NCBI GenBank assembly: GCA_045118535.1
Contig: JBGUYG010000030.1
Span: forward strand, 1-63,038
Length of the DNA: 63,038 nucleotides
Direction of reading: 5' to 3'
Source of the DNA: Paludibacteraceae bacterium
GTDB lineage: Bacteria > Bacteroidota > Bacteroidia > Bacteroidales > Paludibacteraceae
Shown here: piece after piece, positions 10,649 to 12,913 of the stretch
Numbering within the stretch: the stretch's first letter is position 1
Layout of the letters: every line of letters begins with the position of its first letter
Translations under genes and position numbers: made by a program
Notes under the pieces: generated by a model
Seen by the model: the letters and a program-made list of their open reading frames with translations, nothing else
Database searches by the model: none
What the model was told of the DNA's origin: nothing

Positions 10649-12913
10649 TCACAGATTTAGAAGCTTTGTCACTTCAGCTGGATTGAGTGCCCATTCATAA
10701 GTATATGCTTCATCGGCATCCTCTTTATTCTCCACTATTACAAGGTTCTGAGCTTGGGCTTTTGTGTCAAGAAGCTGTCCGATAGACATTTTTGTCTCTA
10801 ACTTGTGGAGCAAAGCCTTGATGGAGGTGTTGTCTGCTCCTCTCAAATTCTGTGAAGTAAATGGCATTTCGAGCCAGATGATTTCCCTCTTAGTTACATC
10901 AAGTATCCCGAACACAAGGCCTTTAGAAAGATTGCCTTCACTGATACGAACCATATGCTGAACACAGGAAGGGTCATAGGCTACACCTTTTTCCTCCGAT
11001 ATCTTCATCGGGTTGGCAGAATCCATCCAACCAACAACAAGATTCGGAGAAAGAGCACCAACTGAGTAGGCATTGCAGGTGAAAGTCACATATGTAGCTC
11101 CAGCACGTTCCAACTCAGGAAGAGACAACTCAATATATTCGGCAGTTCCGATCATTTCTGGGATGGAGCGGATGTCACCAGAATGTTTGGCACCAACACA
11201 AGTTAAACTATAGTAGGCACACTCTGCAAATTCGTTATCTGGTAAGGCTATGCGACAACTCAAGTCCATGTCGAGATGCTGGGCGTGTAACCCCTTACCC
11301 CACTGAAGGAACAATCTAACGGCATCACCTTCAACAGGGAAACGCGTACCCATCAAGGCGCAGGATGCATCCTGAATGGTTGCCGAACGGTCGCCGACGC
11401 TAACAGGGATGTTGTACAACGAAGGATCGATGAAGATAGTCTTTGCCTCTGTTTTCAAAGCGGCAAAACGACGAGTCATTGATTCCTTGTAAAGGCTGTT
11501 GACGCCATCAACCATCGCCTTGCGGTCGTCATCATCATAGAGAGCCAACATCTTGTTAGGCTCAATTCTATGGGTGACACCTGTGATAGGACGAGCCAGA
11601 CGCGTCTCATTCGGGTCGAAATAGGATGCTGCCGCATTGCCGAGCGATAACAACAAACGAGCCGGTAGCTTGTCGGCAATCTCAGAGAATGCTTCAAGTA
11701 CTTTGTCGCTACCGAAGCGAAGCATAGATGCAAACAGACAACGTGCGAAGAGACCTGGACGCTCCTTCAGCAACGCCAGTGTCTTTTCAGCATCATTCTC
11801 TGAACGAGCCTTATCCACACATCCTTGCCAAGTGGAATAATCCTGCTTGTAGAACACATCAAGAATCTCTGCTAAATGATCGAACCCCTTCTTTCGTGAG
11901 TATTCTCCAAGACGGAGAGCACGAATCATTCGTACCCACATGCCACGTTTGGGATTCATATTTTCAGCAGCCTGCTTGGCGGTCATTGGGATGGCATTTA
12001 GCCATTTGGCAACACGCAGACAAGCCTTGCGGTCATATTTCAACATCAGTTTATTTTTCATATCTTTTGCCGCATCTACACCACGATCAAGCGGTCCCCA
12101 CATGTGGTAATACAACTTGCGGGCATGAGCAACAAGCGTCTTCGGCTCAATAATCTGCACATATCCAGTTTTTTCATACCAAAGATAACGCAACACATCA
12201 GAAGGAGTTCTCAACAACTTCGATGCCTCGTCTGCCTTATCCTGCTCTACCAACAGTTTGACAACAAGCATAGTGGTTTCCCTCATGGTGATATTGACTT
12301 CATCAGGCAAAGAAAACTCTTGCAATAACTGTTTCAGAGAATCTTTCTGTGTTGCATCTAAGGGAGTAGCAGAAGTCAGGAGCGATGTGAATACATGCTC
12401 CATATCACTGACAGTGAACAAACGCAATTCCTTCAATTTTGTACCTTGCCCTTTATAAACGAAATCGGCGGTCTCAAATGGTGTCCCACAGAACGGGCAA
12501 CCATTATAACGCTCAAGAGGGAAAGTCCCTTTAGGAATAAGATGCCCACAAGGAAGTGTCGTTCCTTTGAAACCAGCCTTTTCACCGAAAATGTTGGCAA
12601 TCAAGGTGACAAGGTGGTCTGCACGAGTTTCGCCTGTAGGTACATTCCACCCCTTTACGAGAGGTGCCCAGTTCAACTTCACTCCCATCACGTCATTGAG
12701 GCACTCAGTGATTTCTACAAGACGGTCGGTAGAAATTGCGTTCAAAGCATGAAGAAGTTCCTCGCTGACGCAAAAACCGTTCTCTTTTAGGCGGGCTACG
12801 AATGCCAATATAGGCACGGAAGCCTCGGATTTCATATTGATCTCCTCGCGATTGATGTCGAGGAACACTGCTTTATAGCGCAATGCTACGTTTGTTAGAT
12901 TCTTGTTGTTCAT
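10649..12913 (-). CDS. uncharacterised 754-aa protein: N-terminal region with Zn-ribbon, central all-helical repeat region, C-terminal TerD-like beta-sandwich
   Basis: Long clean ORF with an ATG start. The Zn-ribbon-like segment is CGHLIPKG-x12-CPFCG. Residues ~200-480 are helix-rich. The C-terminus LFLQWGKGLHAQHLDMDLSCRIAL...AKHSGDIRSIP...AEYIELSLPEL...YVTFTCNAYS follows the TerD-family pattern (GLxW...DLDLS...HSGDN...E.I.v.L...v.f.v..Y). Confidence 0.85.
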   Translation of the reverse strand: MNNKNLTNVALRYKAVFLDINREEINMKSEASVPILAFVARLKENGFCVSEELLHALNAISTDRLVEITECLNDVMGVKLNWAPLVKGWNVPTGETRADHLVTLIANIFGEKAGFKGTTLPCGHLIPKGTFPLERYNGCPFCGTPFETADFVYKGQGTKLKELRLFTVSDMEHVFTSLLTSATPLDATQKDSLKQLLQEFSLPDEVNITMRETTMLVVKLLVEQDKADEASKLLRTPSDVLRYLWYEKTGYVQIIEPKTLVAHARKLYYHMWGPLDRGVDAAKDMKNKLMLKYDRKACLRVAKWLNAIPMTAKQAAENMNPKRGMWVRMIRALRLGEYSRKKGFDHLAEILDVFYKQDYSTWQGCVDKARSENDAEKTLALLKERPGLFARCLFASMLRFGSDKVLEAFSEIADKLPARLLLSLGNAAASYFDPNETRLARPITGVTHRIEPNKMLALYDDDDRKAMVDGVNSLYKESMTRRFAALKTEAKTIFIDPSLYNIPVSVGDRSATIQDASCALMGTRFPVEGDAVRLFLQWGKGLHAQHLDMDLSCRIALPDNEFAECAYYSLTCVGAKHSGDIRSIPEMIGTAEYIELSLPELERAGATYVTFTCNAYSVGALSPNLVVGWMDSANPMKISEEKGVAYDPSCVQHMVRISEGNLSKGLVFGILDVTKREIIWLEMPFTSQNLRGADNTSIKALLHKLETKMSIGQLLDTKAQAQNLVIVENKEDADEAYTYEWALNPAEVTKLLNL

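Follow-up and report, generated by a model that had tools for sequence, protein, structure and literature searches.

What does a large protein do that ends in a TerD-like domain, and why should its gene lie beside an RNA that mimics a tRNA? These questions are raised by a 63,038-nt stretch of DNA from a Paludibacteraceae bacterium (contig JBGUYG010000030.1, assembly GCA_045118535.1), the whole of which we refer to as the window. An original prediction, made from the letters of the sequence, had placed a 754-aa open reading frame (ORF) at 10649..12913 on the minus strand, read it as a Zn finger, a helical core of possible TROVE type and a TerD-like C-terminus, and suggested a functional tie to the neighbouring tRNA mimic. 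The ORF lies exactly there, and the tie gains support from a conserved, covarying element on the same strand from arrays of a WYL-domain gene, RtcB, tRNA-like RNAs and the gene itself in relatives, and from a weak match to the YrlA model beside a phage homologue. On balance, we favor the view that the 754-aa protein is the protein subunit of a ribonucleoprotein particle (RNP) acting on damaged or structured RNA, most likely tRNA, and thereby a functional counterpart of Ro60/Rsr with its YrlA RNA.

Structured RNAs in the leader of the gene

The 380-nt leader of the 754-aa gene holds a tRNA-like RNA and three copies of a unit of ~70 nt (Table 1). The tRNA-like RNA at 13097-13215, here called type A, matches the Rfam tRNA model at 58.3 bits, above the gathering score of 29, and its acceptor stem, D arm, T arm and 5-bp anticodon stem are all present. 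The anticodon loop has given way to ~55 nt, within which lie a hairpin and the sequence CAUACUUC; no 7-nt loop with a readable anticodon is found. Among 23 homologous elements 94.9% of cells are paired, as against 36-43% in slid controls, and compensatory changes are seen at 25 of 31 pairs, including a helix inside the insert; covariation extends to all four stems of the cloverleaf (acceptor, D, anticodon and T). An ordinary or intron-containing tRNA was considered and rejected, since the insert is conserved and covarying, ARAGORN calls no tRNA at this position, and the element travels with the 754-aa gene.

With a covariance model, tRNA-like elements were found on the gene's strand and upstream of it in ~31 of the 81 Bacteroidales loci that we compared, with one to three elements per locus. 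They fall into two classes, the long type A and a type B of ~100 nt, which has an acceptor stem and a T arm, a non-canonical D region and GCUUACUCC at the position of the anticodon arm. Type B usually heads the array after RtcB (for example L001:3316-3417, L002:5391-5490 and L038:5823-5922), and the window retains a decayed remnant of it.

Further variants of the tRNA-like theme were observed beside other homologues. On an IMG/VR contig, a 55%-identical homologue is preceded by a 58-nt minihelix of acceptor stem plus T arm (L089:5725-5782), which the Rfam tmRNA model matches with its two ends (31 bits); next comes a tRNA-like element whose D region is enlarged. Upstream of a high-GC homologue (L091:4380-4800), two to three direct repeats of ~200 nt (GATCGCTCGGGCCCGCTCCGGC...) precede a 139-nt tRNA-like element. 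On a phage-like contig with genes for topoisomerase II, PTH2 and YqeY, a tRNA-model match abuts the start of a 26%-identical homologue (L085/L086:5932-6013); no CUUACUYC unit was found at that homologue.

The second RNA, the ~70-nt unit, begins with AAGG-(U)CAAG and continues with one strand of a 7-bp helix, the motif CUUACUYC, a variable hairpin, the returning strand and (C)AAUUACCUU, its conserved closing sequence being AAUUACC. In the 63-kb window the unit model finds three matches only, all of them within the leader. At least 72 of ~90 loci have such units ahead of the gene, and in most loci one unit ends ~15 nt before the start codon, as does unit C in the window. The 121 units from 72 loci carry 56 different helix sequences and pair at 6.07 of 7 positions, compared with 4.51 +/- 0.08 when the strands are permuted; a second estimate, as percent paired, is inflated by the selection of units. 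The underlying motif C[AT]TACT[CT]C reaches 3.9 per kb within 900 nt upstream of the gene, compared with 0.11 per kb in the background (~35-fold), and it still reaches 1.6 per kb (~14-fold) in loci that have no tRNA-like element. Four of its seven matches in the window fall in the 300-nt leader. From one to five copies of the unit stand directly upstream of the gene, either free-standing or within the anticodon arm of tRNA-like scaffolds.

The RNAs accompany the gene across phyla. Units or motifs adjoin homologues of 55%, 43%, 42%, 41%, 38% and 33% identity, as well as those in Lactobacillus phage LpeD (21.5%) and in Rhodococcus phage Weasels2 (23.4%). These data define two new classes of structured RNA, neither of which is in Rfam 15.

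The resemblance of the unit to other RNAs was also considered. In tRNA, position 37 is a purine; CUUACUYC has a U at the equivalent position and was set aside as a mimic of the anticodon loop. We know of no convincing complementarity of the motif to rRNA or to the anti-Shine-Dalgarno sequence. The sequence AUUACCU closes each unit (12935-12941 and 13007-13013 in the window; L087:7502 in Weasels2), and together with CUUACUUC it is superficially like the 5' end of U1 snRNA (AUACUUACCUG), which we regard as coincidence.

The position of the units invites a different reading, namely that they are tandem riboswitch-like elements sensing a small molecule (for instance a nucleoside-like compound or a metal, signals that have been proposed for Ter systems), that the protein is a TerD-type ligand- or Ca-binding protein of stress or conflict that binds no RNA, and that the tRNA-like elements and RtcB are co-regulated passengers. 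Riboswitches are known to occur in tandem copies, and here a conserved structured element stands right before the start codon in most loci. Moreover, the TerD-like domain is the best conserved part of the protein, and for TerD itself the binding of specialised derivatives of nucleotides has been proposed (PMC7159879). However, units also occur inside tRNA-like scaffolds far from start codons, in Weasels2 they lie downstream of the gene, neither ter genes nor metabolite-synthesis genes recur nearby in the 81 loci, the leader has no Rfam riboswitch match, and up to five copies per locus suit a protein-binding array better. We consider the riboswitch reading fairly unlikely.

Linkage to RtcB, WYL-domain regulators and phage genomes

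When all adjoining ORFs were clustered across the 81 Bacteroidales loci, the only recurrent neighbours of the otherwise variable neighbourhoods were a WYL-domain regulator (21 of 81 loci) and RtcB (14 of 81). The order is WYL(-), RtcB(+), RNAs(+), gene(+), and nearly every locus of this kind has tRNA-like elements. Xylanibacter ruminicola KHT3 (L051) has the full locus, with WYL, RtcB, three RNAs and the gene, and makes the system tractable.

Two precedents exist for such an association. The first is rsr-yrlA-rtcB, which joins a Ro protein, a tRNA-like Y RNA and RtcB (10.1101/312249; PMC7790460; PMC7824862), and the second joins b7a-tRNA and RtcB to a Band-7 (SPFH) protein (Burroughs and Aravind 2016, cited after 10.1101/312249; PMC7790460; PMC7824862). 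The arrangement found here parallels both rsr-yrlA-rtcB under RtcR and Band-7/b7a-tRNA/RtcB, and we therefore propose that the 754-aa protein may be a Ro-like RNP scaffold.

With the Ro system (in Salmonella rsr-yrlBA-rtcBA under RtcR) the loci described here share a gene for a large helical, RNA-associated protein beside a tRNA-like non-coding RNA (ncRNA), often linked to RtcB, as well as a divergent ligand-sensing regulator, which is of the WYL type here and the CARF-containing RtcR there. The RNAs differ: the tRNA-like RNA of Bacteroidales has open acceptor ends and an enlarged anticodon arm, whereas YrlA is permuted, and the Rfam YrlA model gives no match to the non-permuted tRNA-like RNA of the window. 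Nor is the repeated CAAG...CUUACUYC...AAUUACC unit, which here also occurs in the mRNA leader, known from Y RNAs. The Band-7 system resembles ours insofar that RtcB and a predicted tRNA-like ncRNA are encoded along with a scaffold protein other than Ro. However, b7a-tRNA is described as close to an authentic tRNA, whereas the RNA found here has an insert of ~55 nt and the units, and there is no Band-7 gene in the neighbourhoods examined.

The role of Ro60/Rsr and tRNA-like Y RNAs alongside RtcB is a long-standing open question. If our reading holds, a second scaffold, Ro-independent or very distantly related, would have converged on a tRNA-like RNA, RtcB and a ligand-sensing regulator, and such convergence would argue for the display of a tRNA-shaped RNA on a large scaffold as a general solution in RNA repair.

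In Rhodococcus phage Weasels2 the homologue lies inside a phage tRNA gene cluster, 3 kb from a phage RtcB, and a Thg1-like enzyme and a 2'-5' RNA ligase follow 13-15 kb downstream. An unannotated 390-nt gap after gp266 (L087:7366-7753) contains a permuted tRNA-like element with the order T arm, closed acceptor stem, D arm, which matches the Rfam YrlA model weakly (26 bits, E=0.0016), and the same gap holds four (C)UUACUUC motifs, CUCACC repeats and two matches to the unit model. We found no Ro-like gene in 28.2-135 kb of Weasels2 (79% of the genome); two Rhodococcus phage records did give Ro-like matches. A nucleotidyltransferase is encoded further along the Weasels2 genome.

These phage data bear on a further explanation, a special case of the RNP model, in which the protein, derived from phages or active in conflict, would protect or replace tRNAs that anticodon nucleases attack. 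The particle would serve defence or counter-defence, with the protein presenting the tRNA-like RNAs and their CUUACUUC loop as decoys or repair templates. The Weasels2 copy amid phage tRNA genes, RtcB, the Thg1-like enzyme and the RNA ligase fits this explanation, as do full-length structural homologues in large phages (LpeD and a Campylobacter phage among them; BFVD, E down to 1e-28), the match to PHROG 33734 and the variable neighbourhoods in Bacteroidales. Clusters of real tRNA genes, which may be there by coincidence, point the same way: 7-11 ordinary tRNA genes lie on the opposite strand, 1-2 kb downstream of the gene, at L013:5320-6222 and L017:8940-9612. On the other hand, the PADLOC defence models do not match the 754-aa protein, an IMG/VR scan returned just two relatives of its subfamily, no nuclease or toxin partner recurs nearby in the 81 loci, and the U at the place of the purine 37 makes CUUACUYC a poor mimic of an anticodon loop. 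This special case appears quite unlikely to us.

Domain architecture and the relation to TROVE and TerD

The protein belongs to a family that is already catalogued, with function unassigned. NCBIfam NF041916 (MXAN_6230/SCO0854 family RING domain protein) matches residues 12-688 at E=2.5e-49 and 168.2 bits, far under its equivalog cutoff of 600 bits, and PHROG 33734 matches residues 313-740; these entries and Prok-RING_4, which matches the Zn knuckle, carry no assigned function. Judged by the profile scores, the 754-aa protein represents a homologous but separate subfamily relative to NF041916. The family comprises 1541 clusters at 50% identity (E<=1e-3), and the best-matching loci are from a Prevotella sp. 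metagenome-assembled genome (87%) and X. ruminicola KHT3 (86%), suggesting a Prevotellaceae genome from rumen or gut. A PDB sequence search with the single protein gave noise only, and the plasmid collection searched with the upstream region gave no match. The searchable literature has nothing on MXAN_6230 or SCO0854 and mentions Prok-RING_4 solely in papers on eukaryotes; for TerD with a RING finger in prokaryotes it has nothing on this family and treats TerD and RtcB separately where both occur. In that literature, which does not include key comparative papers of the Aravind laboratory, TerD-type or Prok-RING_4 proteins are not linked to RtcB or tRNA-like RNAs.

AlphaFold2, run with 56 diverse relatives, gave a confident model (predicted local distance difference test (pLDDT) 91.8, predicted template modelling score (pTM) 0.90), which bears out the order of Zn finger, helical core and C-terminal TerD-like domain in the original prediction, to which it adds an alpha/beta domain at either end (Table 1).

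The predicted Cys/His cluster is present at residues 122-143, with a spacing that differs from the one first given: C122-G-H124 is followed by 14 residues, not 17, before C139-P-F-C142-G. Pfam Prok-RING_4 (PF14447) matches residues 118-143 at E=3e-5 and 24.2 bits, under the gathering score of 27 bits, which some relatives exceed (28.0 bits). The four ligands C122, H124, C139 and C142, the sole conserved Cys or His in residues 1-170 (no other such column exceeds 40%), are retained by 40 of 56 family representatives, whereas the other 16 have lost the finger. Family names and the Prok-RING_4 matches of 40 of 56 family members hint at a RING-type E3 ligase or a component of ubiquitin-like signalling, and eukaryotic RING E3 ligases do give weak profile matches (E=0.24-2). 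We rejected this explanation as highly improbable. The site corresponds to the second half of a RING alone (C-x-H...C-x2-C), with four of the eight Zn ligands of the cross-brace; besides the deletions and the subthreshold Pfam score of the window protein, no E1, E2, Ubl or JAB gene was found in the window or in the 81 neighbourhoods.

The core was expected to be rich in helices, and AlphaFold2 gives ~20 of them in residues 168-484; predicted alone, the core has a pLDDT of 89.6. Conserved within it are the basic residues R242, R323, R328, R391 and R438, together with W326. The stretch likened to TROVE in the original prediction is the most conserved part of the core, with W326 in 55 of 56 and R323 in 45 of 56 relatives. 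Membership in the TROVE family finds no support in standard searches. Pfam TROVE (PF05731) matches neither the window protein nor any of the 56 relatives, a TROVE hidden Markov model (HMM) run against 58 family proteins stays at noise level (best E=0.048), and Ro60 appears neither in PDB profile searches (E<=10) nor among the top 50 Foldseek PDB matches of the whole model or of the isolated core. The best neighbours of the isolated core in the PDB are generic TPR/PPR-like solenoids without significance (E=0.04, template modelling (TM) score <=0.3), and there is no Pfam match to a vWA domain, the C-terminal domain being TerD-like instead.

In a pre-specified profile comparison a weak signal did emerge. 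A human Ro60 sequence, validated by Pfam (TROVE, 3e-50), was combined with phage and cellular TROVE proteins into a 50-sequence profile, to which hhalign aligned our family with a score of 32.3 (P=0.0079, probability 5%) over three collinear motifs. The probability climbed with profile depth from 1.5% through 1.9% to 5.0%, the aligned stretch being identical each time. None of 121 controls reached the score. With the reversed profile it was 16.8, with columns shuffled globally (60 runs) 18.2 +/- 2.9 and at most 27.5, and with local shuffling (60 runs) 18.7 +/- 3.3 and at most 30.1. KTPTDvLR is paired with VaRTgTHLF and sR..rR.iA.WLN with WGRaLRkAvA.WYn, and R323, W326, R331 and H-or-R334 of the family align with R174, W177, R184 and H187 of Ro60, a pairing that differs from the one first proposed. 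In addition, BFVD gave one weak match to a phage TROVE protein (E=0.039, TM 0.21/0.26). The resemblance that had been suspected is weakly supported, and a ring of the TROVE/HEAT type is not established; we take true remote homology to TROVE to be suggested, short of membership, and to be a possibility with the odds somewhat against it.

For the TerD-like domain the evidence is firmer, and the domain stands above chance as had been predicted. The only significant PDB match of the full model in Foldseek is TerD 3ibz (E=1.6e-4, probability 1.0, target-normalised TM 0.61, 198 columns). With a TerD reference of the E. coli type, which Pfam confirms as TerD (E=6.6e-88), hhalign aligned the family profile over residues 536-680 (E=3.9e-5, probability 70%) with the motifs DMDLS/DLDAS, HSGD/HTGD and GTAE/GDDE in register. 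BFVD gave TerD-sized matches with TM 0.5-0.7, and 6 of 56 relatives match Pfam TerD (PF02342) directly (best 4.1e-6). The window protein itself has no match to Pfam TerD at E<=10; given the hhalign result, we consider homology to TerD likely, short of formal Pfam membership.

The setting of the domain is atypical, as had been noted, insofar that it is fused behind a multidomain part of ~490 residues, whereas TerD is a stand-alone protein of ~190 aa. Both have the beta-sandwich and the pattern W...DxDLS...HSGD...E. Invariant in the family are W538, D548, D550, G579, D580 and E592, and positions 595 and 597 are mostly acidic. Set against the Ca-binding acidic motifs of TerD (DxDxS, GDN, GDGDDE), D548, D550, D580 and E592 are conserved, whereas both Asp of the TerD GDDE motif are replaced, by T/A and A/S, so that the acidic cluster GDGDD of TerD has shrunk to G-(A/T)-(A/S)-E. 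No ter operon lies near the gene, and no ter genes were found in the neighbourhood of the window or at the 81 loci.

Compared with Ro60/Rsr, the protein likewise has a C-terminal domain with an acidic site of metal type after a helical domain, and the collinear TROVE-signature match in the core and the YrlA match beside the phage homologue are further, weak likenesses. The two differ in that a TerD-like beta-sandwich replaces vWA, an N-terminal domain and the Zn knuckle are additional, and no significant TROVE match is obtained here.

A model of the proposed particle, its weak points and the genomic setting

The following model would accommodate these observations. The arginine-rich helical solenoid, possibly with the Zn knuckle, would bind a cognate RNA module of ~70 nt that consists of the covarying 7-bp helix flanked by single-stranded CAAG, CUUACUYC and AAUUACC. 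The tRNA-like parts may recruit tRNA-handling factors, as proposed for YrlA, and where RtcB is present the particle would work with this ligase. A WYL-domain sensor-regulator may switch the operon on, as the counterpart of the CARF regulator RtcR. The TerD-like domain would hold the place of the vWA/MIDAS domain of Ro60, its acidic site (D548/D550/D580/E592) binding a divalent metal, a nucleotide-like ligand or an RNA end.

The unit copy next to the start codon may also allow the protein to repress its own translation. The thrS operator mimics the anticodon arm of tRNA-Thr, and leaders of ribosomal-protein genes mimic the RNA target of the protein. Our locus resembles these autoregulatory leaders insofar that a copy of the RNA module stands just upstream of the protein's own start codon; regulation would follow by analogy.

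A bolder form of the model would make this a third class of bacterial and phage RNA-repair RNP, in which a very remote TROVE derivative, with TerD for vWA and an added Zn knuckle, uses a new modular RNA, alone or grafted into the anticodon arm of a tRNA-like RNA, acts with RtcB under a WYL sensor and regulates itself by target mimicry. We regard this version as doubtful, though possible.

The RNP model should be viewed with caution, as several observations weigh against it. We infer the binding of RNA by the protein from adjacency alone, and the helical core has no significant similarity to any known RNA-binding fold in the PDB (Foldseek). The window itself has neither an RtcB nor a WYL gene, and in ~60% of the Bacteroidales loci the gene is accompanied by just one or two leader units. 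The YrlA match in Weasels2 is far under the Rfam gathering score (26 vs 69 bits). No clear unit was found at L082, L084 and L085, which are among the most distant homologues sampled (24-30% identity), and the RNA link may therefore fail for the superfamily as a whole. Finally, a conserved structured leader beside the start codon could be a ligand-sensing riboswitch.

If the model is true, it would open a first way to the function of a large family, so far uncharacterised (~1500 clusters at 50% identity), of gut and rumen Bacteroidales and big phages, and TerD domains would gain an RNA-related role.

Table 1. Features of the 754-aa gene and its leader, in coordinates of the window
Feature	Position	Strand	Evidence
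ORF, 754 aa, ATG start	10649..12913	minus	distant relative of NCBIfam 'MXAN_6230/SCO0854 RING domain' family and of PHROG 33734
N-terminal alpha/beta domain, residues 1-110	12584..12913	minus	AlphaFold2 secondary structure; no Pfam match
Four-ligand Zn knuckle/half-RING, residues 117-146 (C122, H124, C139, C142)	12476..12565	minus	Pfam, profile and conservation
Alpha-helical solenoid core, residues 161-484	11462..12433	minus	AlphaFold2 and conservation
Segment weakly aligned to TROVE signature (residues 227-337 vs Ro60 112-190)	11903..12235	minus	hhalign P=0.0079, probability 5%
TerD-like beta-sandwich, residues 492-690; best conserved domain	10844..11440	minus	Foldseek, hhalign, conservation, BFVD
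C-terminal alpha/beta domain, residues 695-754	10652..10831	minus	AlphaFold2 model
Leader unit C (AAGG-UCAAG-helix-CUUACUUC-hairpin-helix-UAUUACC)	12928..12997	minus	unit model 52 bits
Leader unit B (contains CUUACUCC)	13005..13082	minus	unit model 55 bits
tRNA-like RNA, type A, 119 nt	13097..13215	minus (gene's strand)	Rfam tRNA model 58.3 bits; covariation
Leader unit A (contains CUUACUUC)	13221..13291	minus	unit model 52 bits
Decayed type B remnant, 3' part only (AAUCCAGCCCGCCACUCA)	13295..13390	minus	alignment to intact type B of RtcB-linked loci; tRNA-like covariance model silent here
Possible Bacteroidetes-type -7 promoter box TATTTTTG	13398..13405	minus	by eye, fits TAnnTTTG

Upstream of the RNAs, the sequence TATTTTTG is a candidate promoter box on the strength of TAnnTTTG, which we take to be the -7 consensus of the Bacteroidetes type; if it is real, the ORF would be transcribed together with the RNAs. 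A scan for sigma-70 promoters and terminators remained at chance level and was uninformative.

The neighbours of the 754-aa gene in the window are a serine-dehydratase-like gene and a capsule-export locus. Directly upstream of the leader, at 13563-16448 on the minus strand, lie Wzz/tyrosine-kinase-like and Wza-like genes of polysaccharide export, and glycosyltransferases are encoded at ~5869-7077, such that the gene and its RNAs are inserted between loci of the capsule type. At 7342-9083 on the plus strand, a gene for a DUF6996/DUF6997 protein directly precedes one for an N6/N4 DNA methylase, and the two may form a restriction-modification-like pair.

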